Counted from the first letter of the stretch, positions 10,803 to 56,372 are shown. The stretch: DNA of 64,000 nucleotides from Schmidtea polychroa (GCA_044892525.1 CM097885.1:139934001-139998000); one strand, 5' to 3'. Made by a program: numbers and translations. Notes: generated by a model not told the origin, from the sequence alone.

Positions 10803-11320
10803 GAGATATTAAGGCCGAGCTGTTGAAAAGTCCAGCCGGTCAGGAGAAATTGAAACTGAGCTGTGAAAAGTCCAGCCAGTCGGAGATATTAAGGCCGAGC
10901 TGTTGAAAAGTCCAGCCGGTCAGGAGAAATTGAAACTGAGCTGTGAAAAGTCCAGCCAGTCGGAGATATTAAGGCCGAGCTGTTGAAAAGTCCAGCCGGT
11001 CAGGAGAAATTGAAACTGAGCTGTGAAAAGTCCAGCCAGTCGGAGATATTAAGGCCGAGCTGTTGAAAAGTCCAGCCGGTCAGGAAAAATTAAAACTGAG
11101 CTGTGAAAAGTCCAGCCAGTCGGAGATATTAAGGCCGAGTTGTTGAATAGTCCAACCGGTCAGGAGAAGAAGATTGAGCTGTTGAAAAGTGCCAGCCAGT
11201 CGTAAGGCCGAGCTGTTGAAAAGTCCAGCCGGTCAAGAAAAATTAAAACTGAGCTGTGAAAAGTCCAGCCAGTTCGGAGATGAAGAAGATTGAGCTGTTG
11301 AAAAGTGCCAGCCAGTCGTA
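10803..11320 (+). repeat. 80-bp-period tandem array (dimer of ~40-bp subunits, ~13 copies of core GAGCTGT(T)GAAAAGT(G)CCAGCC(A/G)GTC) in the E1 leader
   Basis: GAGATATTAAGGCC recurs at 10803, 10883, 10963, 11043 and 11123, degenerating toward the 3' end. Confidence 0.95.
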
Positions 11321-26946: not shown

Positions 26947-27035
26947 ATATAACCTAACATAGCAATGTAAATAAATGTAAATAAAAATACGAAACTGTAC
27001 CTGTAACGAATATATGTATATATATAATTATAGAA

Positions 27036-36036: not shown

Positions 36037-37084
36037 TGTTAGATGATGAGGGTAGGCCCATCACTACATTCAATTTAGATAAATATTATAGAACAGGGCC
36101 AGGCAAGTACAGGGTTAACGTGTACGCCGAAGAACGCCAGTAAAAGATTTCTCGTCGATACCCATCTATGAAAGCCAGATCGGCAACCAAACAATCCAAT
36201 TTCCCAAGCAAGAACCGATAGTTGAGCAGTGACTTTCATCGATATTCATTTATGTGTCAATAACCTTTATCGATATTCATTTATGTGTCAATAACTTTAT
36301 AATAATTTATTTTATTTCATGTGTGATTTATTGTAAAGAACACCATTTGTGAACTTTAGCAAACTCTGATCTTTTCATCGAATTTGTAGTGTGAATTTTT
36401 ATTTTTCAGTGTATTTTTTAATTTTAAACACAAATAAAAATAATGCATTTAAAAAAGAAATTAATTTAATTTAAAACTTACCACTAAAAATAATTCCAAA
36501 CATTTCCAATAAAATCAAAAGTAAACATAACATTTCCAATAAAATCAAAAATAAACATTTATATTCTGGTGAAAAAATCAATTCTAAAATAAACAGTTAT
36601 ATTAGAAAAATAAAAACCAATTTATTATATTAGAAAAATAAAACCAATTTAAAGTAAAAATAAACATTCGAATATAGAAAAAATAAAATAAATATTTATT
36701 TAATATTAGACATAGGAAAAATTTAGTATATAAGCAATCGTTAAAATCAGTTTATTCGCCCAAAAAATAGCGCAAAGATTTTATATTCGAAGGTAAATCC
36801 TGAGGATAATTCAATCATTTGAATCAGCACAAAACGATTCACAAATAATAAAAGCTTGCTAAGACACAACACGCACACACAACAAATAACAATACATATA
36901 CTTCTTTTTGCACGCATTTTGAGTTGAATAAATTGATAAACAAGTACCAACTTTTTTCAGAATTGTAACTGGATTTTATTTGGTAAATTTTATATTCAAT
37001 ACATTTTATTATATATTCGTCTTTGTTTTGATATATATATAAGAACCAGTAAGTTGGGTGTTCCCGATTATCGAGACCTCAACA
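36037..37084 (+). repeat. E2 5' LTR (1,048 bp)
   Basis: No differences from 48499-49546 in the segments compared by eye. Contains short internal duplications (TCGATATTCATTTATGTGTCAATAAC x2; AACATTTCCAATAAAATCAAAA x2). Confidence 0.97.
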
Positions 37085-37086
37085 TT

Positions 37087-37104
37087 TGGTGCCGCGAACC
37101 GGGA
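37087..37104 (+). promoter_or_regulatory. E2 primer binding site, most like tRNA-Phe
   Basis: TGGTGCCGCGAACCGGGA, 2 nt after the LTR. The vertebrate Phe PBS is TGGTGCCGAAACCCGGGA. The assignment needs the host tRNA set. Confidence 0.7.
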
Positions 37105-37323
37105 CTTTAAAATCAATTATTGTTATTCACAATTTGGGGGATAGGAATTGAGATCAGAGGGTATAGTATTTTATATTGGGAAAATATATTTATAAAAACA
37201 ATATCATTGACCAATTTTTAAATAAATAAATTCAGTTTTGAAAATTATTAAATAATTCAAAAAGATAAAATAGATAATCAACCCGAAATAGTTTATAATC
37301 TCAGAAATAGAATAGTCTATAGG

Positions 37324-39009
37324 ATGAATAATAATAATAATAATTACATAAAAATTTTACCAGTAGAACCATATAGAGGAGAGCCTGAAAAGTTCGACGA
37401 TTTTTTCACTGAGATCGCTCAGTATGCAGAAGCTTGTGGTTGGACACCTGATGAGTTAAAAATGAGAATACCACTATATTTAAAAGGTTATGCGTTACAG
37501 GCATACAATAACTTAGAATGTAAAGGAAATAATTTTGATCAACTCGTAAGATATCTGAGAGCAGAAATAGTAATCGATAGCGACTTACAAAAGATAAATG
37601 TTCAAAAATTTAGAAACAGATACCAAGGTACTAGAGAATCAGTTGGTGAATATGTATATACGATTACGGAGTTAGCGAAAAAGGCATTTGGTGCAGGCGA
37701 GCACACAGCAAAATTAATTGAGGATCAGTTTTGGAATGGTATACAAAAATATTTATATAAAGCACTAATTATGGTAGAATATGGTAATTTAAATGAATTA
37801 GTTCATAAAGCTAAGCGTATAGAAGCAATACAACGAGATAGATTTAGTTCACATGTAGATGCAATGGAAATTCAAAAGCCCATAGAGGTAAAATCTGAGT
37901 TGGGTAAGTCAGATGACAATATCCCCTGGGAGGAGATGAAGCAATTATATTTAAACTTTGTAAAAAATAGACGAAGGGTAAGCCCGAGTCCAGATAGAAG
38001 TCAATCACCTGAAAACAGGAGGAGGTTCGATAATGTGAGAAATAGAAATTTTGAGAATAGAAACAATAGAAATACTTTCGATAGAGACAATCGTAATGAA
38101 TATAATAGAAATAATTATACGAGAGATAATCGAGTCGATTTTAGTAGAAATAATTTGAGAAATAATAAATATGATAGAAATAATAGATATGATAATAGAG
38201 ATAATACAAATGAATTGAGACGTAGACAGACAAGTCCATATAGACAGAATTCATACAGAGAAAGGCGAGGGAGCCCTTATAATAATGATGGTAGAGATAA
38301 AGTAAATTTTAATGGACAAATCAAATGTTATAATTGCCAGAAATATGGTCACTTAGCTAAAGTATGCAATAATGCGCGAAGCGAATCGCCTAATAGAGTG
38401 AGATTTAAAAATGAGCCTGAGATAAAACAGATTAATAGTGCTGAGTTGATATCAGCTAATGATGAAATAAACAGTTTGAGAGAGGAATTAAAAGAATTTA
38501 AAACTCAATATGGGAGACTTATTGAGAGAAAGTTAGAAATGTCATTAAATGAGTTTCAGTGTTTTACCAATGATGTAGATATAGATAATGATGAGTTTCG
38601 TGAAGCAAGAGAAGCGGATGAGAAATTTCTTGCAGAAGCAAATAGATGTAAAGAATTAAAAGAGGAATTGAAAGAGACATTAGAGAAATGGCCTTATGAT
38701 GATAATGAGACATTGCGTATAATAAATAGAGTTCAAGTCGAAGGAATTGACTTAGAATATTTGAGAAATTTGATACCAATAATGGTAAAGAGACAAAATA
38801 TGACAAGAGTATTTGAATTAGAAATAGAATTGAAAGAAATGATAAAATGCTATGGTGAATTTGTGAGAAAAAATCAGAAATTACATGAGTCATTGAATAT
38901 AACTATTGAGGCAAAGGACCTTTCGAGAATACTTATGCGTAGTACAGGGGTACATGTTTGCACAAAAGTGAATAAAGTGAAACAGATGGCCCGAGAAATT
39001 GGGAGATAA
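37324..39009 (+). CDS. gag: E2 Gag (capsid-like, RN-rich linker, one CCHC knuckle, helical extension, first half of a Ubl domain), 561 aa
   Basis: PYRGEPEKFDDFF...YAEACGW...IPLYLKGYAL gag pattern; CYNCQKYGHLAKVC at ~38326. Confidence 0.93.
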   Translation: MNNNNNNYIKILPVEPYRGEPEKFDDFFTEIAQYAEACGWTPDELKMRIPLYLKGYALQAYNNLECKGNNFDQLVRYLRAEIVIDSDLQKINVQKFRNRYQGTRESVGEYVYTITELAKKAFGAGEHTAKLIEDQFWNGIQKYLYKALIMVEYGNLNELVHKAKRIEAIQRDRFSSHVDAMEIQKPIEVKSELGKSDDNIPWEEMKQLYLNFVKNRRRVSPSPDRSQSPENRRRFDNVRNRNFENRNNRNTFDRDNRNEYNRNNYTRDNRVDFSRNNLRNNKYDRNNRYDNRDNTNELRRRQTSPYRQNSYRERRGSPYNNDGRDKVNFNGQIKCYNCQKYGHLAKVCNNARSESPNRVRFKNEPEIKQINSAELISANDEINSLREELKEFKTQYGRLIERKLEMSLNEFQCFTNDVDIDNDEFREAREADEKFLAEANRCKELKEELKETLEKWPYDDNETLRIINRVQVEGIDLEYLRNLIPIMVKRQNMTRVFELEIELKEMIKCYGEFVRKNQKLHESLNITIEAKDLSRILMRSTGVHVCTKVNKVKQMAREIGR

Positions 39010-42000
39010 TGATAAAGTGAAACTGTATTTTAACGGCGTAGAAATGATGAATAATGAATATATAATTGACTATGGAGTAAACGTCATTGATAACAATATT
39101 ATTTCTGCAGTAATAGAAAGGCAAGAAAGTAAAGAAATTGATACACCAACTCCATCAGTAGAATTGAGTATAAACGACGAAAATGACTATGATAAATTAT
39201 TTAGATTGTGGGATGCTTCTTCAGGAGGAGCAATGAGGTCACCAACAGCTAGCGAGGAAATCTTTAAACCTATAGATACTAAATATGATAATTTACATGA
39301 GACAATAGAAAAAATTGCGAAACAAGCAAATATGCAGGATGCAGAGACGATGAGACGAGGTAGGGGAAGGCCTCGAAAATCGGAAATAGCCGAAAAGTCA
39401 GATGACAGAAAGGCAGCAGAGCGTTTAAGAGATATTGCAAATAATATGAGACAGGAAGTCCCAAAAAATCAGGATAATGACAAAGATATAAAGATGATAA
39501 CTGAATTAGTTAAAGCAATGAATATGAGACGATTTCCGGAAGCAAAACCATCAGCGTTAATAGAAAATATAGTTAAAAAGATTAAATTAATGGAAAAAGA
39601 GATTAGAGAATTGAGTGCAGAGGAAGCAAATGAAGAGACAGTGTTAAAGATATTATTTACAACAGGAGTTAATCGAGATAAAGTGATTACGGCAATGGCA
39701 TATTTAATAGCAAGATACAAGAAACTTTTGCGATTGAATCCAAAGAATCAAATAGAAAATATCGCTAAAATGATATATAATAAATTAAAGATAGATGCTA
39801 TGCCATGGATAAAATTAAAGGGAGGATGGAAAATACTGTATGATGAGAGTCTAATAGAAAGTGCTCAGGAAAGCGTAGAAGACAATATTAATGTAGAAAT
39901 AGATGATACGGAGGAAACAGTAAAAAATCTAGTAAATAAAACAACTATGAAACCAAGTCAAAAAGAAAGAAAGTCGACAATGTCAATAGTAATTATAGTA
40001 ATAACATTGTTATTAGATCTGATAAAAGGGAATAATGCGATCATAGCGTATGACTGTCAGAATCCTAAGTGGGGACAGAAATATTCATTATTAGATGTAG
40101 AAAATTGCCCAGAGGCTAATCCAACAAAACTAATTGTTGCAGATCCAAAGATTTTTCACATATATCAAGAGTCTGACTTCATTCACACTGAGGCAGGAGA
40201 GTGTATCGTTAAATATTCAGAGGAAAGTTTTGTATGTAATAAAATAGCGAGAACAATATTAACTCCAACATGGGCACCAGAAGCGATAATAATAGCACCA
40301 AGCGAATGTGAAAATGCATTTAAGACAAAAAGGATAAAAACGCCAGATGGATTTGAGTTAAATGCTCAGATAGGAGCACGAGTAAGGCAATTAGTAAATG
40401 TCGTTGGATGGTCATCAACAGGAGGATATTGTGAAGGAGGAACGTATAAAATATGGGGGCATGTAGCAGACAATATTGTAGTAAGACGACAATATTATAT
40501 TGAATTAAGGAAATTCAAGGCGTCATTTGATAGTTCATCAAAGAAAATGATGACACATAAGTTCTGCACATTAGATGAGACAAGCTGTGATACAGGCGAG
40601 TCAATGATCATATACAAAGTAAACAAATATGAATGCCATCTAACTAAACTAAAGACACTGAAATTCAGAACAATACGAAGTAAACAGTTCACGGATGTAG
40701 AATCCAAGAACATTAAAGACCAAAAACGACGAGCAACGATAATTCAAGAGAAAGATACACCAACGATATATATGTCAGATTCTGAAACAGAAGCGATGAG
40801 ATTTGTGGGGAAAGGTGAAAGTATCAAATGCGGAAAAGCAGTTATACAAACAAATTATGAAGGAATTTATATCAGCGGAAGTGAAATTAAAGAGGCAAAA
40901 TCGAAAATAGATAAATTCGATGTCAAGCTAGCGTCATACTTTAATAATAAAATCGATTACTTTTATCATCATCAGTTAGTACAATTGGACAAAGTATATC
41001 AAGCAACTATTGCAAACGATTGTAAACTTAACAGAGAAATTTTAAGAACAAAGATGGCGGTTGCAGTCACAAACCCAGATTTGATGGCACCAATTTTATT
41101 TGCAGAAAAAGGGACATTTGCAAGAGTCGTCGGTGAAGTGATACAAACATTTCAGTGCAAACCGGTTAGCGTATCTTTAGCAACGAATAATAAGTGCACA
41201 AACGAACTGCCAGTAGTGTATAAAGGAGAAACTGTGTACCTCCAACCAATAACAAGGATATTAACAGATAAAGACTATGTTCCGAGAAAAATTGATAAAT
41301 GTACTAATCTATTGGATCCATTATACAAAATAAATGATGATATGTGGATTACAATGTCAGATAGAAAAGAAGCGACTAAACCACAAAAACTAGAACTAAC
41401 CGAACTTGAGAAAAAGTTAGAATTTCAGGAAGTCAACGAAATGGAAAACAATGGGATGTATACGAGAGAGGCGATAGAAAGCGCCAGAAAACATATGTTA
41501 TTTCCTCATGAAAAAGAAAAAGTTCTTTCTATCATGGTAAACAAAATCATCGAAAATAGTTATGGAGGGAATTACAACTTTGATGTATTATTATCAAAAG
41601 AGCACTTCAAGAAAGTTGTGTATAGAGTATTATACAGCATATGGGGATATTTTGCGATTCTCGGAAATACGTTTTCCACTATATTGGGTATATATTATAC
41701 AGTAGCACTATTGAAAATGATTTGCTCATCATTAGTTTCGTTAAGACAACTGAGACAAGTTTTTGGTAATTCATATAAAATGATAGCATGTTTATGTCCA
41801 TTCATAGCCAAATATTTGATCACTGCGAGGCACGATAAGGAAATCAAACGGATGAAAAGTCGAAGGGAAGAGGGTGAAATAATGATCACCAATGAGAAAG
41901 AGGACGATACAAACAGATCAGAAAATACTGAGCAACCACATATTGGGTTATATGATAATCAAAGAGAACAATTGACAGAATTGAGAAATAATATTGAAAT

Positions 42001-45000
42001 TAGAATCCCAGGTGAAAATGGTAATTGTCATTGTGTTCCAAGGAAAACTTATGGATGTTACGGGTTAGAACTTGATGATATATTAGAAGGGTTAAATGAA
42101 GCAAGGCCTAAATTACAAATAGTGATAAATGATACGATAATAAAGGCATTATGTGACACAGGAGCAGCAGCTTCTATGATTCGTGAAGATCAGTTAACCG
42201 GAAACCAAAAGAAAAATATTGTGAGCACAAGAGATAGAGTAATTTCATTATCATCACATTACATACCATTAAAAGGAGATATCGAATTAACAGTCCACTT
42301 TTCGGATCAAGTGGTTGAACATGTCTTCAAGGTAGTAGCAGAATGTAAATGCGTATGTGTCCTTGGGATGGACATACTCAAAAAGTTAAAAAACTGTGTA
42401 ATCGATTTAACGGATAGTACAGTCAAACGGAAGGCAATATATCAAGACGCAAGATTTACTGAGGTAATTGCATTAGAGACATTTGAACTAGAGTATCAAA
42501 GTGATCATATAATTCCAGTAAAAGTTAATGTTAAAAGTGAGGACACTTTCACTTTCGAGCCTGAAACGGCAATATCACGAAATCATAACGTAATGTTAAC
42601 AGACGAGTGTGTAATTCCAAATAATGGGATAATTCCAATAAGAATCGCGAATTACGAAAGAAATAAAGTAAAAATTCATAAAGGTACAAAATTGGGAAAG
42701 TTGTTCAAAGGTGAATTAGAGCAAACATTTGAAGTATGTGAGATGTCGATGACGAAGGATGTCAGTGAAAGAATGGTCGAACAGAGTAGAGCGAATAATA
42801 TCAAATTTTATGATAAAATTAAAATAAATAATAATTATCTAAATGAAACACAACAACTACAACTACAAATATTACTTGACGAATACAGTGATGTTTTTGC
42901 AAAACACGAATTTGATTTAGGAGATACTGACATTATCAAACATGTAATCGATACAGGGAATGCTAGACCAATAAAACAGAGACCCTATAGTGTACCATAT
43001 AAACTGAGGGAGGAAATAAAACGACAAATTAAAGAATTAAAAGAGGCAGGCGTAATAAAACAAAGTTTTTCACAATGGGCATCACCTATCGTACCAGTTA
43101 GAAAGAAAGACGGGGAAATTCGAATGTGCATTGATTATCGTAAATTAAATGATGTAACAGTAAAAGACTCATACCCATTCCCAAAAGCACAAGAACAATA
43201 TGATAAACTTAGAGATACTAAATATTTCACAGTAATAGATGCAAATAAAGGCTACATGCAAATTCAAATGGAAGAGGGGGAGGCGGAAAAGACAGCTTTT
43301 GTGATAGAAGACGGTTTATATGAATATACAAGATTACCTTTTGGATTAACTAATGCGCCAGCAACATTTCAACGTTTAATGAATACAGTATTAGTAGACG
43401 TACAACATTGCGCAGTATATATGGATGATATATTAATTTCATCAAAAACATTTGAGGAACATCTAAAAGATATAGCTAACGTACTAGAAAGATTAAGAAA
43501 AGCAAAAATCAAAATAAAACATACTAAGTGTAAATGGGCAGAACCTTCAGCATTATTCTTAGGACATATAGTTACAGTAGATGGTATAATACCTAATCCC
43601 GATAAAATTGAAGTAGTTAAAAAATTCCCAGTTCCAAAAACATTACAACAAGTACAGGGATTTTTAGGTCTCACAGGATATTATCGTAAATTCATACAAG
43701 ATTATGCAAAAATAGCAGCACCACTAATTGAATTAACAAAAGGAGTCAAAACAAAGGGAGAGAGTAAAGGAGTGTTAATAGTGCAGGAAATTAACGATAA
43801 AATTAACAAGCCACAAAAGAAATGGAAAGATGAACATCAAAAAGCTTTTGATCAACTAAAAGAAAAATTAATAACAGCACCGATACTAAGATACCCAGAC
43901 TTTAAAAAACAGTTTATTATCATGACAGACGCCAGCGGGAAGGCCGTAGGGGCAGTCTTAGGACAAGAAGAGGAAAAGGGTAAAGATTATGTAATAGCTT
44001 ATGCAAGCAAAACATTAAAAGGAGCACAGATTAGGTACTCAACAATTGAGAAAGAATGTTATGCTATAGTTTTTGCATTAAAACAATTTAAACCATACAT
44101 ATATGGAACTGAAGTAGTAATTAGAACAGACCATAAGCCATTAGAAGGGTTATGGAAACATAAAGATACATCCAGTAGACTGTTAAAATGGGCAATGAAA
44201 ATACAAGACATGCACATAAAGATTGCATACAAACCAGGTAGAATAAACAGGAATGCAGATGCATTATCACGAATTCCAGAGTTAGGAGCACTAGAAGTTT
44301 TTGCATTAGTAACCGAAAAACCAATAGAAATATATGAGGAACAAATGAAAGATCCAGAACTCTTCAAGATAAGAGAAGAAATAAAAAAGGGAACTAACCA
44401 AAAGTATAAAATCTGTAAGAAGTTAATTGTTATTGAGGATTTTAGCGGTAAACAATTAATAGTAGTACCACAAAGATTAAGACAAATTCTTCTGTTACAA
44501 TACCACGATGGTGCTTTAGGAGGTCATTTATCAAGTAGGAAAACAGCAAGCAGATTGATGCAAAAATATTATTGGGACGATTTGAAAAAGGATGTCAAGA
44601 GATGGTGTAATGCATGCACAATATGCGCAACTAGAAAAAATACAGGAACAAAAACTAAAGCACCTTTACATCCAATCCCAGCTACAACATCACCAATGGA
44701 ATTGTGCGCAATGGATTTTTTGTGTAAACTACCCACAACAATTAAGGGGAATAAGCACATACTAGTTTTTAGCGATTATTTTACAAAATGGGCAGAGGCA
44801 TTTCCTACAAAAGATGAAACAGCAGAAACAGTAGCTAAATTACTTGTGGAAAAAATAATCTTTAAAATCGGTACACCGAGAAAATTACTAACAGATAAAG
44901 GGAAAAATTTCATGAGTGAAACTATAAAAAGAGTAGCTAACATATTTAACATGCATAAAATCAACACAACAGCATACCACCCTCAGACCGATGGTTTAGT

Positions 45001-46414
45001 AGAAAGATTCAATGGGACATTGCTAAGTAGATTAGCTGTGTTTGTGGGGAAAAACCAAAATGATTGGGATGAATACGTTAATCAATGTACATACATCCAT
45101 AATATCACACCAAATGAGACAACGGGATATTCACCATATTTTCTAATGTTCTTAAGAGAGCCTGCGACACCGATTGATACGATTTTTGAACCTCGAGTAT
45201 CACAATATTTAGATGCGCCAGATTATGTAACATTAATGCAAGAGAGATTACAAGAGGTATACAAGGTTGCAAATTTAAAAGTTAAATTCAGACAAGAACA
45301 ATATAAAGCAGATTACGATAAAAATAGCAAACCTCATAATTTTAAAGTGGGAGATAAGGTTAGACTTATGTCTCCACAAGTAGGAAAAGGCAAAACAACT
45401 AAATTAGCAAGACCATTTAAAGGACCATACGAGGTAGTAAAAGTAATACATGAAAACCTGCATTTACAAAAACATAAAAATGAGGATCCTATAATAGTAC
45501 ATGTTAACAGATGCAAATTAGCAGAAACAGAGTTAGTAGAAAAACCACCTCACAAATATGGATTACGATCGCAAAAAGCACTAATGATGGCAGCGACATT
45601 TTTAACAATTATAGGGTTGTGTAAATCAACTGAAGTGGAAAACGAAAACATACACTCAGTAGAATACATGGCTGAAGATATTTTAATCAACATTTCACCA
45701 TATAAAATTAGAGTATATAACTTAAATAAATCACCAATAAGAGACTTGTATCTGGAAACTAGGGATAATATACCCAAACTTATGAAAAAAATTGAAAATA
45801 GATCAACTAATGAATTTGAAAGAGGGGATAATGTTGAATTCGGAAATCTGCAACCCAACACTAATTACACACTTTGTGCACAATGGAATACATTAGTTGA
45901 CACATCACAGATAAGGTGTAAAAGACTAAAAACTACTAAAATAAACAGACTAAGAATAAGAAAACCAAAAGGAAAGAAGATATCAACAACCAGAAAAACA
46001 ACTACTATAAATTCAACACCCACACATCCTATATCACAAACGATAACGAATATATATAGGAAAACGACATTTAAAGCGGTTAGACAAATATATAAAAAAT
46101 TAATAATGAAAAATCCAAGACAGTCTGATAGGAAACTGATAAAATTACCTACAGGAAAACCGATAGTTATAAATAACTGGAATGAATTACAAGTATTTCA
46201 AAAGAAAGCAAGCAAACCACAATGGCCTTTTTATATAATAGCTACAAGTGTAGTATCATTCGCGATTTTAGCAATTGTCACTAGTGTACAAGTTTATAAA
46301 AAGTACAAGTGGAAAAGGCAGCGGTATCGGCACCGACTGGTCAAAGAAGCACCAGGGCATTTTCACTTGGACAAATATATCCCTGGACAATATACTCTGT
46401 CCACACTGGTATAA
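38999..46414 (+). CDS. pol: E2 polyprotein in the +1 frame: Ubl half-AT-hook-Bcl-2-like-chuvirus-type glycoprotein-PR-RT-RH-IN-SP/FN3/TM
   Basis: RRGRGRPRK; LFTTGVNRDKVI and WIKLKGGW; IIAYDC...YSLLDVENCP; LCDTGAA; YMDD (43418-43429); TDASG; integrase DDE and GPY; VEFGNLQPNTNYTLCA; TM FYIIATSVVSFAILAIVTSV. Confidence 0.96.
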   Translation: MGDNDKVKLYFNGVEMMNNEYIIDYGVNVIDNNIISAVIERQESKEIDTPTPSVELSINDENDYDKLFRLWDASSGGAMRSPTASEEIFKPIDTKYDNLHETIEKIAKQANMQDAETMRRGRGRPRKSEIAEKSDDRKAAERLRDIANNMRQEVPKNQDNDKDIKMITELVKAMNMRRFPEAKPSALIENIVKKIKLMEKEIRELSAEEANEETVLKILFTTGVNRDKVITAMAYLIARYKKLLRLNPKNQIENIAKMIYNKLKIDAMPWIKLKGGWKILYDESLIESAQESVEDNINVEIDDTEETVKNLVNKTTMKPSQKERKSTMSIVIIVITLLLDLIKGNNAIIAYDCQNPKWGQKYSLLDVENCPEANPTKLIVADPKIFHIYQESDFIHTEAGECIVKYSEESFVCNKIARTILTPTWAPEAIIIAPSECENAFKTKRIKTPDGFELNAQIGARVRQLVNVVGWSSTGGYCEGGTYKIWGHVADNIVVRRQYYIELRKFKASFDSSSKKMMTHKFCTLDETSCDTGESMIIYKVNKYECHLTKLKTLKFRTIRSKQFTDVESKNIKDQKRRATIIQEKDTPTIYMSDSETEAMRFVGKGESIKCGKAVIQTNYEGIYISGSEIKEAKSKIDKFDVKLASYFNNKIDYFYHHQLVQLDKVYQATIANDCKLNREILRTKMAVAVTNPDLMAPILFAEKGTFARVVGEVIQTFQCKPVSVSLATNNKCTNELPVVYKGETVYLQPITRILTDKDYVPRKIDKCTNLLDPLYKINDDMWITMSDRKEATKPQKLELTELEKKLEFQEVNEMENNGMYTREAIESARKHMLFPHEKEKVLSIMVNKIIENSYGGNYNFDVLLSKEHFKKVVYRVLYSIWGYFAILGNTFSTILGIYYTVALLKMICSSLVSLRQLRQVFGNSYKMIACLCPFIAKYLITARHDKEIKRMKSRREEGEIMITNEKEDDTNRSENTEQPHIGLYDNQREQLTELRNNIEIRIPGENGNCHCVPRKTYGCYGLELDDILEGLNEARPKLQIVINDTIIKALCDTGAAASMIREDQLTGNQKKNIVSTRDRVISLSSHYIPLKGDIELTVHFSDQVVEHVFKVVAECKCVCVLGMDILKKLKNCVIDLTDSTVKRKAIYQDARFTEVIALETFELEYQSDHIIPVKVNVKSEDTFTFEPETAISRNHNVMLTDECVIPNNGIIPIRIANYERNKVKIHKGTKLGKLFKGELEQTFEVCEMSMTKDVSERMVEQSRANNIKFYDKIKINNNYLNETQQLQLQILLDEYSDVFAKHEFDLGDTDIIKHVIDTGNARPIKQRPYSVPYKLREEIKRQIKELKEAGVIKQSFSQWASPIVPVRKKDGEIRMCIDYRKLNDVTVKDSYPFPKAQEQYDKLRDTKYFTVIDANKGYMQIQMEEGEAEKTAFVIEDGLYEYTRLPFGLTNAPATFQRLMNTVLVDVQHCAVYMDDILISSKTFEEHLKDIANVLERLRKAKIKIKHTKCKWAEPSALFLGHIVTVDGIIPNPDKIEVVKKFPVPKTLQQVQGFLGLTGYYRKFIQDYAKIAAPLIELTKGVKTKGESKGVLIVQEINDKINKPQKKWKDEHQKAFDQLKEKLITAPILRYPDFKKQFIIMTDASGKAVGAVLGQEEEKGKDYVIAYASKTLKGAQIRYSTIEKECYAIVFALKQFKPYIYGTEVVIRTDHKPLEGLWKHKDTSSRLLKWAMKIQDMHIKIAYKPGRINRNADALSRIPELGALEVFALVTEKPIEIYEEQMKDPELFKIREEIKKGTNQKYKICKKLIVIEDFSGKQLIVVPQRLRQILLLQYHDGALGGHLSSRKTASRLMQKYYWDDLKKDVKRWCNACTICATRKNTGTKTKAPLHPIPATTSPMELCAMDFLCKLPTTIKGNKHILVFSDYFTKWAEAFPTKDETAETVAKLLVEKIIFKIGTPRKLLTDKGKNFMSETIKRVANIFNMHKINTTAYHPQTDGLVERFNGTLLSRLAVFVGKNQNDWDEYVNQCTYIHNITPNETTGYSPYFLMFLREPATPIDTIFEPRVSQYLDAPDYVTLMQERLQEVYKVANLKVKFRQEQYKADYDKNSKPHNFKVGDKVRLMSPQVGKGKTTKLARPFKGPYEVVKVIHENLHLQKHKNEDPIIVHVNRCKLAETELVEKPPHKYGLRSQKALMMAATFLTIIGLCKSTEVENENIHSVEYMAEDILINISPYKIRVYNLNKSPIRDLYLETRDNIPKLMKKIENRSTNEFERGDNVEFGNLQPNTNYTLCAQWNTLVDTSQIRCKRLKTTKINRLRIRKPKGKKISTTRKTTTINSTPTHPISQTITNIYRKTTFKAVRQIYKKLIMKNPRQSDRKLIKLPTGKPIVINNWNELQVFQKKASKPQWPFYIIATSVVSFAILAIVTSVQVYKKYKWKRQRYRHRLVKEAPGHFHLDKYIPGQYTLSTLV

Positions 46415-48605
46415 TAACTTAAAAAATTTTAATTACATAAATTGGTTAATGATATATAATAAAAGTATATATATTAATATTTATATAACTGCGTATAAGG
46501 TTAAACCTCAAATGCGCAACAAGCATAAATATTTATTATTTGTTTTTAGAATAGTAATAAGAAGTTTATCGAGTCAATTCAGTCAAATCAATCCCCAAAT
46601 AAATCAGTCTAATCAAATCGATCCTCCAATAACCCAAAATCAAATCAGCCAATCTAATCAATCCAATCGTCTTCATTCAAACAAATCAATGCACCCACAT
46701 ACGTCAGTTCACATGCATTCTCAAAGAGCAAAACCTCAGCGAAATCCTGAAACTCAGAAAATAAGGCAATACGTGCCGATGTTACAGAAACACTACCACA
46801 GTTTCTATAAAAACCTGCAAAATAAGATCAGTACAGATGGTACTCCCATTACTATTAGAAGTTTCCCCAACCAAGTGTGCATTCCTAATGATATGAAAAT
46901 TGAGATAGAAGAAAGGGAATTGCATCTCATCAAATTCAACGAAGCAAGAAGAGTCAAATTAAGAGAATTAATCGGAGCGTATGACAAATTCCCCAATGCA
47001 GAGGAGGCTGCAAGAGCTGGAAAGAAAGTGCCCCATAGAATTTTATTTCACATCACAAAAACAGAGGTAGCAATATGCCAACAAAGGATACCATTAATCA
47101 CCACGAGCAATTGCACCATCACAATAAAAACTACAAAAAATGATCGCAGTGTCCCAAACGACTACAATGAATTGATAGTCCAAATGAACAGCCTACCCTG
47201 TGTCATAGCGATCGAAATATTATACATACCCACGATCCCAAATCCATTTCAGCAGTTGGAACTCATTAAATCAAACATTTATATGCATGGAGATTTCATC
47301 AGAAGAAAAATGTCATTTACCCACAAAGAATTATCCACGGCGGAGAGACATCATCTGATAATGTTTGTAGATGCAAAATTAGTATGCGACATCAACAATA
47401 ACTTCGGGCCAGTAGAGGTCAGCATACGGAATTTTAAGGGTGTAACAATATTTGATGAGAAAATTACACCTAGAACGAAAATCCTACATTATTATCCAGA
47501 GAAGACAAAGGCCAACAAGGAAAATATCATCGGGAATAAAGATGAATACAAAGCACTGGTCGAAATCCAACAGTTACTTTGCGGAAAAATAGTCGTAGGA
47601 TTCGACATCATCGGAAAACTCAAAGCTCTCACATTAGATCTCTATAATGTTATGGGAGTTAGAGAAATGTCGGAAGATATATTTATGTGCTCGTACGTCA
47701 AAAACGTTGCGCCACACAAGATAAAATTGTCCAACCTGGCATACCAGGTAATCAGACATCACAAAAGGTGGGACAAAGATAAACGCATAAATAGAATGCT
47801 GCGTGAACCCGAACCATTTCCAGCATGGCAAACCACAATGATCGTCAAAGTAATATACGCAATCGTAGAAAATCAATGGGAAGAAGTCGTTAAATGGGAC
47901 TCAGAGGCCTTCAGTGAACAACAAATGAAAGATCAATTATATCCCATTAAAGAAAGTGGTCTAGAGGATATGTCGGACGATGGAGAAGATATTTATATAG
48001 AACCATCGCAAATCGGATTGAAATTTAATAAAGATGGGACACGCAGGACTTTCGAAAATGAATTAATGGAAAGCGATGACGACATAATATTCATCGAAGA
48101 GGAGAAAATACGAATACCTGAAGCAACAGTCAAACTGGAATTACAGGAACCAAAATTCCATCCAGGAAAACTAATGGAATGCGACCTCGACTCTGATGAG
48201 GAATACTTCTCAATCAACGAGCAAGAGGAGGAAAATATGGATATAGACGAATTAGGACCAGAACCAGATATCGCAATCGAGGAGGAACCCAATTTTATCA
48301 TACCCAAGGAGAAGGAGCAGATTACAGAAAAGGAATTGACCCGACATTTTGGAAGGCGTATAAATGATGGCGACACATTAAATCTCGCATTGGCAAAAGG
48401 GTTCAACAGAACGAGGATGCTGATAAGAGACAGCGAAATCGAGCTGGTACGCAGTATAAGAGATAATGCGGACATTATCTTAACGGCCCAGGGAGGAATG
48501 TTAGATGATGAGGGTAGGCCCATCACTACATTCAATTTAGATAAATATTATAGAACAGGGCCAGGCAAGTACAGGGTTAACGTGTACGCCGAAGAACGCC
48601 AGTAA
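46275..48605 (+). CDS. E2 accessory ORF with a degenerate DEDDh (ISG20/REXO4-like) exonuclease domain (~47349-47875) and acidic tail, ending inside the 3' LTR; true start probably ATG 46512 or 46689
   Basis: IMFVDAKLV...VSIRNFKGVTIFDEKITPRTKILHY...IQQLLCGKIVVGFDIIGKLKAL...VREMS...IKLSNLAYQVI follows the REX4/ISG20 pattern. Confidence 0.75.
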   Translation: MSLVYKFIKSTSGKGSGIGTDWSKKHQGIFTWTNISLDNILCPHWYNNLKNFNYINWLMIYNKSIYINIYITAYKVKPQMRNKHKYLLFVFRIVIRSLSSQFSQINPQINQSNQIDPPITQNQISQSNQSNRLHSNKSMHPHTSVHMHSQRAKPQRNPETQKIRQYVPMLQKHYHSFYKNLQNKISTDGTPITIRSFPNQVCIPNDMKIEIEERELHLIKFNEARRVKLRELIGAYDKFPNAEEAARAGKKVPHRILFHITKTEVAICQQRIPLITTSNCTITIKTTKNDRSVPNDYNELIVQMNSLPCVIAIEILYIPTIPNPFQQLELIKSNIYMHGDFIRRKMSFTHKELSTAERHHLIMFVDAKLVCDINNNFGPVEVSIRNFKGVTIFDEKITPRTKILHYYPEKTKANKENIIGNKDEYKALVEIQQLLCGKIVVGFDIIGKLKALTLDLYNVMGVREMSEDIFMCSYVKNVAPHKIKLSNLAYQVIRHHKRWDKDKRINRMLREPEPFPAWQTTMIVKVIYAIVENQWEEVVKWDSEAFSEQQMKDQLYPIKESGLEDMSDDGEDIYIEPSQIGLKFNKDGTRRTFENELMESDDDIIFIEEEKIRIPEATVKLELQEPKFHPGKLMECDLDSDEEYFSINEQEEENMDIDELGPEPDIAIEEEPNFIIPKEKEQITEKELTRHFGRRINDGDTLNLALAKGFNRTRMLIRDSEIELVRSIRDNADIILTAQGGMLDDEGRPITTFNLDKYYRTGPGKYRVNVYAEERQ
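48490..48498 (+). promoter_or_regulatory. E2 polypurine tract
   Basis: AGGGAGGAA immediately before the 3' LTR TG. Confidence 0.75.
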
Positions 48606-49546
48606 AAGATTTCTCGTCGATACCCATCTATGAAAGCCAGATCGGCAACCAAACAATCCAATTTCCCAAGCAAGAACCGATAGTTGAGCAGTGACTTTCA
48701 TCGATATTCATTTATGTGTCAATAACCTTTATCGATATTCATTTATGTGTCAATAACTTTATAATAATTTATTTTATTTCATGTGTGATTTATTGTAAAG
48801 AACACCATTTGTGAACTTTAGCAAACTCTGATCTTTTCATCGAATTTGTAGTGTGAATTTTTATTTTTCAGTGTATTTTTTAATTTTAAACACAAATAAA
48901 AATAATGCATTTAAAAAAGAAATTAATTTAATTTAAAACTTACCACTAAAAATAATTCCAAACATTTCCAATAAAATCAAAAGTAAACATAACATTTCCA
49001 ATAAAATCAAAAATAAACATTTATATTCTGGTGAAAAAATCAATTCTAAAATAAACAGTTATATTAGAAAAATAAAAACCAATTTATTATATTAGAAAAA
49101 TAAAACCAATTTAAAGTAAAAATAAACATTCGAATATAGAAAAAATAAAATAAATATTTATTTAATATTAGACATAGGAAAAATTTAGTATATAAGCAAT
49201 CGTTAAAATCAGTTTATTCGCCCAAAAAATAGCGCAAAGATTTTATATTCGAAGGTAAATCCTGAGGATAATTCAATCATTTGAATCAGCACAAAACGAT
49301 TCACAAATAATAAAAGCTTGCTAAGACACAACACGCACACACAACAAATAACAATACATATACTTCTTTTTGCACGCATTTTGAGTTGAATAAATTGATA
49401 AACAAGTACCAACTTTTTTCAGAATTGTAACTGGATTTTATTTGGTAAATTTTATATTCAATACATTTTATTATATATTCGTCTTTGTTTTGATATATAT
49501 ATAAGAACCAGTAAGTTGGGTGTTCCCGATTATCGAGACCTCAACA
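48499..49546 (+). repeat. E2 3' LTR
   Basis: Copy of 36037-37084, followed by TTAA. Confidence 0.97.
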
Positions 49547-49742: not shown

Positions 49743-50896
49743 CAGCGGTTTCTAAACTTTATGCTACTACGCCTGCCTAAAGCAAATTTTTTCTAGGCAC
49801 CTCCCAACCTTAATAATTTTATAGGTATAATAAAATATTAATATAATATTTATTTTTATATTAAATTACTAAATAAACTATCTCTAACGCATCAAAATTT
49901 AATGTTGTTTATTTGCACAGCTTATCAAATCTTAAGGGCAATGTGGAGAGTGTCACTCGTAACTAATTTTCTATTATTAAGCTGTCTCGATATTTGGTTT
50001 TCATTTTAGCTAGTGCCAAAAAACCCGTTTTGTATAAATAGGAGGTTACAAAATGGTTGAAGCACTTGTATTGCTTTGTAAAACAAAGATTCTTAGTTTC
50101 CACAATAATTCGTTTAACAATAAAATGATCGTTCCTACACAATTATGCTTCTTCATGATGGTTTTCTTCGAGAAATGTTGTTATTTCTTCTCTGAGACAA
50201 AACACCATTTGATTCATTTTTGCACAAGATAGCCAGCGAACTTCAGAATAATACAAAAGTGAAGTATAATCAGCTTCATATCAATACACAGCTTTGCAAA
50301 CAGCCTAGCTCTCAATTTACTGCTGTTAATGTAGTTTATAATTTTTAATACTTCTGTAAAAATGCTGTTCAGTTCCTCGCTCATATTTTTATACACTAGA
50401 GGTACTCTGTGAATCATACAGTGCGTCCAGATAGCATGATTATGCTTTCCCTTTAACCAATGTTTGAAGACATGGTTTTTGTCCGGACATTGAGTGAGCT
50501 CCGTTTGTAAACAGTCCAACGCAATTATTCCACGTTATATCATTTTCTTCAAAAAAGAATTCTACATACCGACAATATGCTTCCGTTGACACTTTAACCA
50601 CGAGTGGCGTTTAAATTTGAGGTTATTGTTTCATGCACCTAGCGGCCGTTCTGTGCATTACCGAAACAGTGTTTGCAAAAGCGCTATTTTTAAAATCTTT
50701 TCTCTCGAGATTTTTATTTAAGAATTAAATGTGTATAAAAATGAAAGAAAAATAAAAAGAAACATTTATCTAATGCAATTTTACTGTTAAGTTATGATAT
50801 GATGTCATATTTAATTGTAAAAATTATTTTTTATTAAAGTTTGAGGTTTTTAATAATAAAGTTTTTATTAATTCTCCCCCAGTTCTGAAACCACTG
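49743..50896 (-). mobile_element. Non-autonomous hAT (Buster/Charlie-like) element with transposase relic
   Basis: TIRs CAGCGGTTTCTAAACT / AGTTCTGAAACCACTG. TSD GTATTATT vs GTCTTATT (one mismatch). Minus-strand WTHCMIHR and frameshifted YSEVRWLS motifs. Confidence 0.85.
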
Positions 50897-51728
50897 GTCT
50901 TATTGGAATAGTCTATGAAAGTTTTGCTAATTAATTTTGTGTTTTAAAATATATTCTTACTCTATTTACATTTTTTTAAAATTAATTTTTGTATTATATT
51001 AACTTTTCTTACTAATTTTATATATATTTATTTTACTTTTTTGGCTTCCTTTTCAAGTTTACATTTTTCGCATTTTTTTGTTTAAATATAATTTTCTTGG
51101 ATTTTCGCCAACACTAACAAATCGATCTTAAATGTAACAAACTTACATTTATTACGTTATTAAAATTATCAACAGTAAAAAAGAATTTAAAAAAATTAAG
51201 GGAAAACAACGAAGATTAGCCACAAAAGTTTCTTTACTAGATCGTATCCAATGCAACTTTTTATTGAGTATATAACAAAAAATGCTCTTTCTAAAATAGA
51301 AATCCAACTTTTCAGCTAATAGATATTTTGAGTAGTCAAAAGGAAGCGTATTCAACAAAATCAATAATTTATATAAACAAAATACAGGCAAATCAATAAA
51401 TAGATCAATTCTGTAAATGTTCATTTAGAGATCAGCGAAATACAATAAAATCAATCCTATAATTTATTTCCAACGCTATCAATTGAATGAAAACAAATTA
51501 GTAAAAACCTTTGAAAACTTTACCAAGCACAAAGGGTCTAACATTTCAACTCTATAATATTTCTTATCAAGATCCAACAATTTTTTAATATCGTTTATAT
51601 ACATGACGACAAACCAGTTTAACATCAAGCAAATAATTGGCTACCAAAACACGCATTTATAATCTAATTCATTATTTATCAATAGCAACATAAAATAAAC
51701 CAAACTTGTAACCAGAAATAAGCGATAA

Positions 51729-51764
<36 letters not shown>
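51729..51764. repeat. (AAT)n microsatellite, with a TA/TGTA run at ~51829-51888
   Basis: Direct reading. Confidence 0.9.
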
Positions 51765-51766
<2 letters not shown>

Positions 51767-52088
51767 ACGATAAAAATAAGAACGACAAATAACTAATAAC
51801 TTTCCGAAAAGGTTGCCAATGTCAAAAATACTATATATATATGTATGTATGTATATGTGTATGTGTGTGCTTGTGTATGTGTATGTAAAAATGAAAAAAC
51901 TAAATGCAATGACCATGGGGATTCATGTAAAGATGGATTGATAAATTGACAGAGGCAGAAAAGTTCCATAAAAACAGTTGTACATTATGAATCATAATCA
52001 TAATAATATTAATAAAGAATAGGATGAATTAATCATGTTTTGTCCATTCATAAAAAGTCAATGTTTATTTACACTGTTAATTTCTCAT

Positions 52089-52238
<150 letters not shown>

Positions 52239-52817
52239 TTAGAAAATTTGTCAGTGTGTTTCAATATGTACTAACAAACTTGGAAGGAAAAAGGACTAGA
52301 AGAAATTTTGAAATTAGAAATTAATATTTTTTCAAAGGTTTCTGAGTTCGATTGAAATATTCGCAATTTCATTAATCACTTTGTAATTTTTTAAGATTAT
52401 AGAAATAATTACTAAACCAGGGATAAACATCGAGTGTGAAATATTCTTTAAAAATTTTGTTTAATTTTTGGAAGAAAACTGAAATGAATTAAAAATTATA
52501 GAAAATATAAATAAAAATAGAAATTAATTTGAAAATATTGTTTTTTTTGGATCGGGATTCTGTTAGGGCCCTTGGTGCACTTAAATGCAGACTTACTGAA
52601 TCAAATGAGTTAACAGAGCAAAAATTACCCGTATAACGAGCGACGAACTATTAACTAGTGAAATGAATTTATTAACAAGAATATATATGAGTGTTTCCGA
52701 AAGAACTTCGAAAAGTGCACTAAAGAATGTTTTCAGTTTTCGTCTTGTGAGTGTTTATTTTGGTTAAGAAAATGAATTGTTTTTAATCTCAAATTCTATG
52801 TAAACATTCCTCTAATT

Positions 52818-53030
52818 CAGCGGTCTTCAAATTTCAAAAGCTCGCGGAGCCCTTATATGAAATGATGCATTACAAATTAGATTTTATTTAAGTTTTTTTA
52901 TGAAATTCTTGAAATTTTTATTTGTTGTTTGATGAAAAATGAAAAATTTTTATTGATGTTTTTTGGTGAGAAATGAAGCAATTTCTTTTGGTACCCTATG
53001 GTTCCGCGGAACACAGTTTGAAGACCACTA
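52818..53030. mobile_element. hAT MITE (213 bp) in a SMAD intron
   Basis: TIRs CAGCGGTCTTCAAA / TTTGAAGACCACTA. Perfect TSD CTCTAATT. Confidence 0.9.
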
Positions 53031-54278
53031 CTCTAATTTATTAAAAAGAGCTTGAAGACTATCACTCAGTAATCATATCGATGTTTTTGATATTCACGAA
53101 TTTTCGGTAATGCTTTTTTCAAGTGAATTTGATCTAATTTTCCTCTAATTATCTTTTATGTTAGCTCGGAAAAATTAAACAAAGGTTTTCCCTTTGGTTT
53201 CTGATGAAGCTCCTACACACGAAATTAAAACTAAGTGAAAAATTAATCCAAATGTTTAAGAATCACTGCTCCAGTTTACCCTACAATCCTTTTTATATGC
53301 ATGTTGCATACACGTTTTTACTGGAAAGTATCTTATAAGTTTGACAGAACTTGCATTTGAATTTTTTTAATATTATAATTTTTAGTTTATTCTACAACCC
53401 GCTGGAGAAATGTTGTCAGTATAATTATACTTGTTATCACTCGTATCAAATCTTTTTTGTAATTTAGTTAGCAAAAGTAACAAAACTTGGCACATCTAAA
53501 TGATAATATTGGTCATCAATTTGCACACGATTTCCGTTAATGGTAAACAATTCCATTGATCTGTGTAACATGCCTTGGAATAACTGTTCCTCAATGATTT
53601 TTATTCATTTCCCCTACATTTTCAAATCGAAATCAAACGTCAACAGTTTTAAGCAACGGCTCAAAATTAAATAATGTAAAATGTTTTGAAAAAATTATAA
53701 AATTAATTGATATTATTAAACTAAATTTTAATCTCGAATTTAATTTCAATTATTTCTAAAAAGATACAAAAAAATAATGAAAAATCATTAAGATATTATA
53801 ACGCTTTACATTTCCCTTTATTCCTGGCTTGAAGTTTGAATTATTATGGTATCCTCATGTAAACTACCTATAGTCTGAAAATGGATTCTCATGTTAGGCA
53901 CCTTAACCAGATGTTTGGTTCATCCAATATTACCAGTTCTGCTTATGAAAAATGTCCTGGTGGAACTCTTAGCCTCTTTTGAAGTATCCATTAGGGACGT
54001 CCCCTAAGAACGATGATAGGCTATTCATAACCGAGATAAATGGGGACAATATGAATGAGGTTCGAGAAATGAGTACATAAACCATTACCACCTTCAGGTT
54101 CAGTTTATACTTTCATTAAAATCCGCCTATAACTTTCTGACTATTATTTAACTTGTCATTTGCAAGAAAATTTAATTACCACAAATTATTTGGAATTTTT
54201 TAGTAAGATTTTCTGTTGAAAATTCATATAAAACCCAACACCCTTGTTATTTGAATATTATTTTATCAGTTCTTTTAA

Positions 54279-54484
54279 CCCTTTAAATTTCATAAAAAGT
54301 TAGAAAATGTGTCAATTATCCGTCAAAAAAAAGTTAAAGATATCACTGTGATTTGAAACACGCGTAGGACGACCAAGAGAGCATAATACATTTATAATAT
54401 ATTAAAAAAATTTCCCTTAGGGGTTGTTAAAAGTAGTTACAAAGGTATATTCAATAATATTCGGATTTATCCGCATCTAAAGGG
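54279..54484. mobile_element. piggyBac-type MITE (206 bp)
   Basis: TTAA|CCCTTTAAAT ... ATCTAAAGGG|TTAA. Confidence 0.7.
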
Positions 54485-55450
54485 TTAATAGAGTCTATAA
54501 ATGATTCTGTCTCAATATTAGCTGAGGTTTTGTCTGTGTCAAAAACTGTCTACAGAAATATGTTTGATATTATAGATCACAATGAAAGAACGAGTAACCT
54601 TTAGAAACTTTCTCCAATATTTTATTAGTTAAGAAACAGTTGTTTGATCTTTATATATAATTTTATTCTGGAAAAATGTGTTCTATTTAAATACGATAAA
54701 TTTTATGTCCTGAATTTCTTCTGGTTTTGAAGGAGTCTCCCAAAAAGGGACAATGGGGAGCGGGTAAAAAAGGACGTAATTAATTTCAATATGTTTGAAA
54801 ATTACATCGACATTAACTTGATCTGATGCGTGGTTAAAGAAATAAATCACAAATAAATCTAAAGTTGTTAATTAGATCAATGACAACAAGCGCTTGTTCA
54901 CATTTATTTTTTAAATTTGCATATTTATTGTTATTTAATTCGTTTATAAAAAACAAAAATTTCTGATATATTTCATATATTAAAATATTTTGATTAAGAT
55001 GAGAAACAGTCCCAACCTGTGTAAAACATTCGAAAATGTTTTGTTTTAAACGATTAAATTTTTATGGTAAACTAGAAATATTATTAAATTTTATTATAAG
55101 AACTTTTTTTTCAGATTTCACCACTGATTTCTTTTCCATTGTATTTATTAAATAGTTTGAAGACTAAGAATCAGTAAATATATCGATGTTTTTGATATAT
55201 TGACTGATTCATATTCTTCAAACTTTTTAATAATTATTTAATTTTATATGCAATTACTAAAAATAAGGGTTTTCTAAAGTGTAAAAATATAGTTGTAGTT
55301 GTTTCTTCCCGACCGAATGATAACATTGATCCTATGGAAATAAATCGTATGTAATGTTCGTGTGGAGTTTTAAATGTTTTATTTTTTCACATTTAATCTG
55401 TTTTTATTTTCTCTTAACATTGAATTTATTTTCATTACGATTATATAGAT

Positions 55451-56372
55451 CAGTGTTTCCCAAACCGGGGTACGCGATGGAATTTGTTGGGGTACGCAGG
55501 CCTTTTCAGATATATTTTCTGTTTTAAATTGTCTCAATCTATCTTTGCAAGGCAAAGAAGTTTCAATATTTCAGGTTCACGATAAAGTAAAAGCTACTAT
55601 AGAAAAATTAAAGCTTTGGCAAAGACAAATTCTAAATAAAGAAGTGGATTCATTTTCATCTCTTCATGATTTTATAATTAATTCTGGTAATACAATTGAT
55701 GATGATATTCTGAGCTATATATCTCAGCATTTGGAGAATTTGCAAGTTGGTCTCGAAAAATATTTCCCTGATTTAAAGAAAAATATAGAATGGATAATAT
55801 ATCCATTTGATATTAATATAACATCGATGCCAGAAGGATTATCATATGCAGAAGAAGAAAGCTTATTAGAAATATCTTCAGATGGTTTCTTGGAAAAAAA
55901 GCATATGAAAGGCTCTTTGCCATCATTCTGGTTACACCTACAATCAACATATCCTTCATTATCAGAAAAGGCCCTGAAATGCATCTTTCCCTTTCCAACA
56001 TCATATTTATGTGAAGTTGCTTTTTCTACATTTGTAGATATTAAATCGAAAAAAAGAAATAGGCTTTTAGATGTTGAATCTCATCTAAGATTAAAATTAA
56101 CCAAAAGAGAACCAAATTATGATGAATTATTATCTCAGCATAAGCAATTTCATCCTTCTCATTAATTACAATAAATTAAGTATATTATTTTTTATTTTAC
56201 AATATTTCAGTTATTTAATTTTTCGTTAATGCTATTAATTTAAAGGTCGTATATTTTAAAAAAGATATTATAAAAAAATTTAGTCATTATATAAAATTTT
56301 AAAGCAAATGGGTACATTATATAATGAAAATGACCAAGGTGGTACGCAGTATCAAAATTTTGAGAAACACTG
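55451..56372 (+). mobile_element. Internally deleted hAT (Buster-like) element retaining the transposase C-terminal dimerisation region (55545-56165)
   Basis: TIRs CAGTGTTTCCCAA / TTGAGAAACACTG. Perfect TSD ATATAGAT. Motifs FWL..YPSLSEKAL..FPFPTSYLCEVAFS and KKRNRL. Confidence 0.92.

Follow-up and report, generated by a model that had tools for sequence, protein, structure and literature searches.

A predicted ISG20/REXO4-like pseudo-exonuclease encoded by a Ty3/gypsy retroelement of Schmidtea polychroa and reading into its LTR

Analysis of a 64,000-nucleotide stretch of the Schmidtea polychroa genome (hereafter the window) revealed a young gag-env-pol Ty3/gypsy retroelement at positions 36037-49546 (+ strand) that carries an accessory gene, E2, 3' of pol. 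By predicted fold and descent E2 is a member of the ISG20/REXO4 group, and it fails membership as an active DEDDh enzyme. It combines the traits of a DEDD pseudo-nuclease: a fold predicted to be kept, catalytic residues lost and a sequence under selection. An earlier note on this DNA had read the gene as an ISG20/REXO4-like pseudo-exonuclease, and sequence, predicted structure and selection bear this reading out.

The retroelement and its accessory gene

The element is bounded by identical LTRs of 1048 bp and a TTAA target-site duplication (Table 1). It possesses LTRs, the PR-RT-RH-IN order and a gB-type env between gag and pol, as GAG-ENV-POL errantiviruses do. An env in this position is described for flatworm GAG-ENV-POL errantiviruses (PMC13524379) and for planarian Burro elements (PMC6431247), with which the element also shares a Bcl-2-like module and accessory ORFs; the main texts of these two papers, as searched, hold no mention of an exonuclease or cupin ORF. 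The LTRs are identical, but a comparison with four other copies reveals a frameshift at the gag-pol junction near 38,990; the window copy is therefore young but polyprotein-defective.

A giant Burro-like gypsy element occupies positions 5074-35657 (4190-bp LTRs 99.93% identical, CGAC target duplication). It encodes a 4811-aa polyprotein, contains 80-nt tandem repeats near 10800-11320 and carries two ORFs labelled by eye as TRAF-like (26985-28424) and RING-like (9721-10218); no relative of E2 was found within it. Nesting of the E2-bearing element inside this giant was considered and rejected, as the former starts 380 bp beyond the end of the latter. Fragments resembling a DNA transposase by eye lie at 50214-56165, and a pair of 91-nt inverted repeats (4511-4601 and 52354-52444) brackets both retroelements.

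E2 is an open reading frame of 697 codons, from an ATG at 46512 to a stop at 48603-48605. A search of the genome with its nuclease region gave 1045 candidates, and all 150 matches that were scored were accepted, with identities of 56-100%. Many copies of E2 carry stops. Several internally deleted copies lack pol, and some also lack env (L041, L042, L045, L093, L095, L096, L099); their accessory ORF is largely or wholly open, and some carry an in-frame gag-Bcl-2-tail fusion.

The signals upstream of the ORF likely represent an internal promoter and/or a splice unit (mini-intron or splice acceptor), judging from their sequence. The acceptor-like site lies 50 nt after the GT of TATAAG/GT in all 28 loci with the motifs, out of 31 examined. 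Translation may start at M1 (46512) or at M60 (46689), and the evidence is split. In two other subfamilies an ATG is found 4-31 nt past the acceptor-like site, which favours a downstream start. Upstream coding, on the other hand, is favoured by the in-frame conservation of the first ATG and by a distance from the acceptor to M60 that changes in steps of 3 only (139, 154, 160, 163). Four runs of contigs of uncertain kind showed no usable splice joint into 46550, which speaks neither for nor against splicing there. The earlier placement of the gene at 46512-48605 holds for its 697-codon frame, with an uncertain start at 46512; the N-terminal cupin-like domain had gone unreported. Upstream of the ORF in L083-L098 we observed ATTGG, a TATAAGG-like motif, very short GT...AG segments (about 30 nt, or more in loci with expanded ATT repeats) and then an A-rich ATG, a layout suggestive of an internal promoter and a very small 5' intron.

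Table 1. Features of the E2-bearing retroelement, in window coordinates.
Feature	Position	Strand	Basis or remark
5' LTR, 1048 bp, TG...CA, preceded by TTAA target-site duplication	36037..37084	+	Identical to 3' LTR
Primer-binding-site-like sequence (TGG...) just past 5' LTR	37087..37104	+	Sequence and position
gag with CCHC knuckle, cut off from remaining polyprotein by frameshift near 38,990	37252..39009	+	
Bcl-2-like segment, Monjiviricetes-type fusion glycoprotein (env), PR, RT, RNase H, IN, membrane-anchored C-terminal tail	38981..46414	+	Pfam; Bcl-2-like segment E 9.3e-5, below Pfam cut-off; tail read by sequence
Upstream signals ATTGG, TATAAG/GT and pyrimidine-rich acceptor-like TTTTAG at 46549	46443..46549	+	Conserved in three subfamilies
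Accessory ORF E2, 697 aa from first ATG; next in-frame ATG M60 at 46689	46512..48605	+	
Cupin-like double-stranded beta-helix domain (aa 111-240)	46842..47231	+	Predicted structure
ISG20/ISG20L2/REXO4-type DEDDh domain (aa 278-462), 12-aa basic insertion before ExoIII	47343..47897	+	Catalytic positions in window copy: D287, K289, K369, F436, T441
Linker rich in acidic residues (43 D/E in 132 aa), containing short islands of conservation	47898..48293	+	
SUMO-interacting-motif-like island in linker (aa 522-528)	48075-48095	+	Resemblance to motif consensus
Conserved C-terminal domain (aa 595-697), last 35 codons within U3	48294..48602	+	
Polypurine tract by position, in frame as part of the Gln-Gly-Gly-Met codons	48490..48498	+	
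3' LTR, followed by TTAA target-site duplication	48499..49546	+	LTR pair identity

Predicted folds and lost catalytic residues

A phmmer comparison of E2 with the PDB returned two matches at E<=10, ISG20 (1wlj, E 1.9e-4) and ISG20L2 (7yw5, E 0.0068). An AlphaFold2 model of aa 107-462 reached a pLDDT of 85.5; it was built on 20 rows including intact relatives, which favours a nuclease fold. Foldseek ranked ISG20 first for this model (E 2.6e-8), and VIA-align superposed it on ISG20L2 over 159 residues (Z 17.9, rmsd 2.3 A). The unaided E2 sequence, however, already matches ISG20. The segment aa 278-462 is predicted to take the RNase H-like DEDD fold of the ISG20/ISG20L2/REXO4 group; a DEDDh fold over 47349-47875 had been set beforehand as the point on which the pseudo-exonuclease reading would stand or fall, and these searches recover it. 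E2 resembles ISG20, ISG20L2 and REXO4 in fold (Z 17.4-17.9, rmsd 2.3-3.4 A), in sequence and in its C-terminal helix. It differs from them in lacking four of the five catalytic residues and in being a mobile-element gene, and it adds a cupin, an acidic linker and a C-terminal domain.

Pfam returned no relevant family for the E2 protein and nine clade members, and word-indexed protein searches gave no match for E2 or for one clade alignment; the same kind of search with an intact sister protein gave three. A profile of 26 intact relatives matches ISG20L2 at 1.3e-31, and 19 of the 26 match PF00929 at E<=1.

Catalytic positions were counted in 50 clade loci, made up of the 30 nearest and 20 picked for diversity, window copy included. 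The window copy keeps D287 and has replaced the four other catalytic positions (K289, K369, F436, T441). Its ExoI motif reads D-A-K in place of D-x-E; position 287 is an acid (D or E) and position 289 is K or R in all 50 loci. The ExoII aspartate is K369 throughout (50/50), and D94 of ISG20 aligns with this lysine without a gap. In place of the ExoIII H-x4-D, F436 is found in 50/50 loci and position 441 is T (44/50), I, N or M. None of the 50 loci has an acid at position 289, 369 or 441, and a D occurs at position 440 in 14. The degenerate motifs described earlier (ExoI DAK, an altered ExoII Asp region, no clear ExoIII H/D) are confirmed by alignment, and the check proposed at the time, inspection of other copies, finds K369 and F436 without exception and position 289 always K or R.

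These residues bear directly on whether E2 could still be a nuclease, one whose site is rearranged or poor in metal and which, like human REXO4, would assist RNase H in removing the RNA of hybrids. The constant acid at 287 and the D at 440 in 14 loci could be taken in its favour, as could the report that REXO4 degrades the RNA of hybrids together with RNase H1 (PMC12915616). We consider residual activity very improbable, as the window copy lacks the histidine and three of the four metal ligands, and in ISG20, where D11, D94 and D154 are needed for nuclease activity, single D-to-G changes abolish it (PMC7756014). A hybrid-clearing role would fit the intact sister proteins better than E2.

The first half of the E2 model is predicted to form a cupin-like double-stranded beta-helix barrel (aa 111-240). 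Foldseek matched it to cupins (E about 1e-4), and it superposes on the Cupin_2 structure 6b8w over 92 of 95 residues (Z 8.9, rmsd 2.8 A), a middling score for a domain that was modelled together with the nuclease region. Metal-binding cupins are recognised by the consensus H-x-H...E...H. The HxH metal motif was not seen in E2, where a single His (180) and a single Glu (235) are conserved.

Intact sister families, selection and the LTR

Searching the genome with PF00929 brought up sister families in which this two-domain gene lies about 2 kb past the integrase, 3' of pol as in the E2-bearing element. Their RT is about 49% identical to that of the window element. The nuclease motif reads D-E-E-H-D in 24 of 28 sister-clade loci; the L059, L080, L083 and L088 families have intact nucleases with a Glu at the ExoII Asp position. 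In a tree of nuclease domains the element-borne rows group against five cellular rows (support 93/92, not starred), and the stem leading to the dead clade measures 2.08 changes per site, with short branches in its crown; long branches meet in this tree, its cellular rows form an open fork, and it does not fix the donor gene. Host genes labelled by similarity as REXO4-like (L120; intact motifs, intron), REXO5-like (L122) and ERI1-like (L051) were also recovered. Among solved structures ISG20 is the nearest to E2, but the host gene nearest to the E2 nuclease is the REXO4-like one, with motifs intact, and the analogy with the interferon-related ISG20 is for this reason one of fold only.

A profile search of 1.84 billion representatives returned 47 proteins at E<=1e-30. 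The wider family was drawn from the best 150 matches, of which 53 include the cupin part; 10 truncated ones were dropped and 43 kept. Among these full-length relatives 27 are intact (16 D-E-E-H-D and 11 D-E-D-H-D) and 16 degenerate. On a quick tree of the 43 relatives and 10 rows from this genome, the intact or dead label requires three changes, two of them forced by starred branches. Catalysis appears to have been lost more than once in the cupin-DEDDh family, as read from an unrooted tree on which loss is the simpler direction because the cellular relatives are intact. In the other dead lineages the same catalytic positions are replaced by other residues, not lysines. None of the 23 proteins looked up had an informative name. 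The one genomic context obtained comes from a metagenome contig, in which a gypsy pol is immediately followed on its 3' side by a distant intact relative; two queries of viral contigs and one further query of metagenome contigs found no relatives.

Live and dead rows have P125, N126, H180, E235, P320, R321, D344, G382 and R384 in common, which points to a shared non-catalytic function. E2 might act purely as a protein scaffold, in which the nuclease fold is the structural partner of the cupin and a pocket of N126, H180 and E235 binds a small ligand or protein, with no nucleic acid involved. Conservation of the cupin residues across live and dead rows would suit such a scaffold, and so would the differing replacements at catalytic positions among dead lineages. 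We nevertheless judge it unlikely: K369 and F436 are invariant and position 289 is always basic across synonymously saturated loci, which suggests that the old pocket is still doing something.

Selection was estimated roughly, by the Nei-Gojobori method, in 11 pairwise comparisons, most of them saturated at synonymous sites. In the saturated pairs the nuclease domain has pS 0.71-0.90 against pN 0.13-0.26. The two unsaturated pairs gave omega values of 0.040 and 0.069 for the dead nuclease domain, 0.063 and 0.086 for the cupin, 0.23 and 0.13 for the linker, and 0.078 and 0.048 for the codons inside U3; a decayed copy, L044, departs in its U3 codons (omega 0.42). These low values in the dead domain and in the LTR-encoded tail argue that both are maintained as protein. 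They also refute the idea of a decaying relic or chance open frame, to which we give almost no credence in spite of the stops in many copies and the broken gag-pol junction of the window copy. Omega is far below 1, and a frame of at least 740 codons is present in 23 of the 30 nearest loci; in 300 shuffles of the sequence the longest frame averaged 98 aa and never exceeded 211.

The 3' LTR starts at 48499 and contains 107 nt of E2, stop included, so that the earlier claim that the last 35 codons are the first 107 nt of the LTR is upheld. The polypurine tract had also been described as coding. The nine purines at 48490-48498 are indeed read in frame; they probably are the polypurine tract, a reading based on position, since purine runs of at least 9 nt number 10 in the E2 ORF. 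The same in-frame LTR edge occurs in 40 of the 50 clade loci and was confirmed by an LTR pair in L036, one of four dead-clade pairs tried. In the intact clade LTRs were found for three of seven pairs; in these three the distance from the end of the ORF to the LTR is about 270, 830 and 2,360 nt, and a separate G-rich tract precedes the LTR. As the intact sisters stop before the LTR, overlap and lost catalysis mark the same lineage in this genome. HIV nef and foamy-virus bet likewise overlap U3, and foamy-virus tas and bet are accessory genes. These are analogies to E2 by position or function only; the comparison with nef made in the earlier note stands for gene position and extends no further.

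The conserved C-terminal domain gave no Foldseek match, and its model has low confidence (pLDDT 64). Homology between the tails of the dead and intact clades looked plausible by eye, but was rejected on an hhalign probability of 0.7% (E 0.077). SUMO-interacting-motif-like sequences were found in 10 of 41 tails against about one in shuffles, with 0 of 1000 shuffles as high; the patterns were written after the motifs had been seen, and three of the 10 matches are close kin.

Deeply diverged versions of E2 and U3 sit on near-identical gag-pol backbones. L112/L036 are 95-100% identical to the window element over gag-env-pol, but at E2 and the first part of U3 their identity to it is only 64-71%; a further version is present in L116/L034 and L031 (66-79% identical), and L026 pairs an E2 core 91-94% like that of the window with an LTR merely 63-77% alike. 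We conclude from these mosaics that E2, the neighbouring membrane tail and U3 recombine as modules on one backbone. The tail, which is beta-rich, Thr-rich and membrane-anchored, forms the part of the pol ORF past the integrase (45500-46414) and changes along with the E2 cassette, at 75-90% amino acid identity where RT is 97-99% identical.

Joint exchange of E2 and U3 in the L036 and L031/L034 types would be consistent with a protein that transactivates the LTR or internal promoter of its own element, by analogy with foamy-virus Tas, with the acidic linker (43 D/E in 132 aa) serving as activation region; the promoter-like signals upstream and the overlap with U3 could be read in the same way. 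Such a role seems improbable to us, since L026, with its window-like core and different LTR, indicates that core and U3 are not strictly matched, and no DNA-binding motif was recognised in E2.

Possible role of E2 and comparison with known systems

The reading that we favour, tentatively and at somewhat less than an even chance, is that E2 is a non-cutting RNA-binding adaptor serving its own element. Gene position, motif loss, selection, sister families, LTR overlap and exchange are observed; both folds are predicted, and RNA binding, target, nuclear role and the link with SUMO are our inferences. A gypsy-clade ancestor would have acquired a nuclease of REXO4 type and fused it with a cupin. 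Loss of the metal-binding acids would have followed, here and independently in one or more further lineages, and the replacement of two acids by fixed basic residues would favour gripping of the phosphate backbone without cleavage. E2 is likely made from its own short transcript and would bind the RNA of the element or an RNA:DNA hybrid, while its acidic tail with SUMO-binding-like motifs would contact the nuclear machinery of the host, so that this RNA is protected, expressed or exported. The LTR edge would have come to lie inside E2, so that the C-terminus of the protein now travels with U3. Two observations appear to count against the adaptor: the other dead lineages have no lysines at these positions, and the domain has made no general gain of basic charge, since its 30 K/R and 24 D/E match the 29 and 23 of the intact domain. 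As to its target, own RNA, host RNA and protein would fit the results alike.

A doubtful rival is that E2 acts as a decoy or dominant negative that blocks host RNA surveillance or piRNA processing generally, for example by occupying RNA 3' ends or the partners of REXO4-like host enzymes. LTR elements are piRNA targets in planarians (PMC8532177), and SIM-dependent recruitment of SetDB1 belongs to piRNA silencing in Drosophila (10.1101/533091); the predicted dead nuclease fold would suit a decoy, and host conflict could yield several deeply diverged E2 versions on one backbone. However, selection is purifying, not diversifying, in every part measured, and no host target was identified. Moreover, live and dead forms have the cupin partner and the non-catalytic core in common, so the core job of the family seems independent of deadness.

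A bolder extension, which we think unlikely as a whole, is that E2 belongs to a clade-wide, undescribed cupin-REXO4 accessory family that repeatedly turns pseudo-nuclease and that here, as a swappable U3 cassette, would use its SUMO motifs to intercept SUMO-dependent piRNA chromatin silencing at its own transcripts. If true, this would be a dedicated retroelement anti-silencing protein built out of a host RNA-processing enzyme.

The adaptor reading has precedents in proteins that bind without cutting. The PXL domain of PML keeps one of four DEDD residues, has no nuclease activity and binds RNA, and Exuperantia is another pseudo-exonuclease that provides, with PXL, a precedent for binding without cutting (PMC13659232); Maelstrom and EXD1 are also named among DEDD pseudo-exonucleases (PMC5408684). 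All share with E2 a DEDD fold with lost catalysis, and Exuperantia matches the E2 model with Z 10.2. As described, Exuperantia and PXL are host genes of other DEDD branches with a SAM-like partner, whereas E2 is a retroelement gene of the REXO4 branch whose N-terminal partner is a cupin and whose low-confidence C-terminal model had no match. CERV of Cer1 in C. elegans is an LTR-element accessory protein, like E2, that handles the RNA of its own element (PMC10309623), a functional analogy only.

DEDD ORFs on transposons are already known. The Juno and Vesta LTR retrotransposons and the Terminons of bdelloid rotifers carry a DEDDy ORF3, in which DEDD is changed to DEED and for which no proven activity or role is reported (PMC5408684). 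Like E2, it is a separate ORF of DEDD 3'-5' exonuclease type on an LTR element, and the DEED change parallels the D-E-E-H-D of the intact sister genes, although the elements are unrelated. The rotifer ORF3 is RNase D-like, with its acids intact; E2 is REXO4/ISG20-like, of DEDDh type, fused to a cupin, dead and laid over PPT and U3. The tyrosine of the rotifer type, taken here by its description, contrasts with the H-x4-D of the intact relatives of E2. KolobokD also carries a DEDDh domain (PMC9587614), but is a DNA transposon whose domain is described as similar to Exu, TREX and ERI1, not REXO4. By motif, E2 appears to match neither rotifer ORF3 nor KolobokD. In the literature searched (listings, abstracts and some passages of main texts), we found no cupin-REXO4 retroelement protein, nor, within the same scope, repeated loss of catalysis, selected PPT/U3 coding or exchange of gene and U3.

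Within the one S. polychroa genome, some young multi-copy families carry this gene intact and others carry it dead, at an equivalent place in the element. Together, these families allow a direct test of what use a captured nuclease is to a retroelement, and of whether cutting matters.
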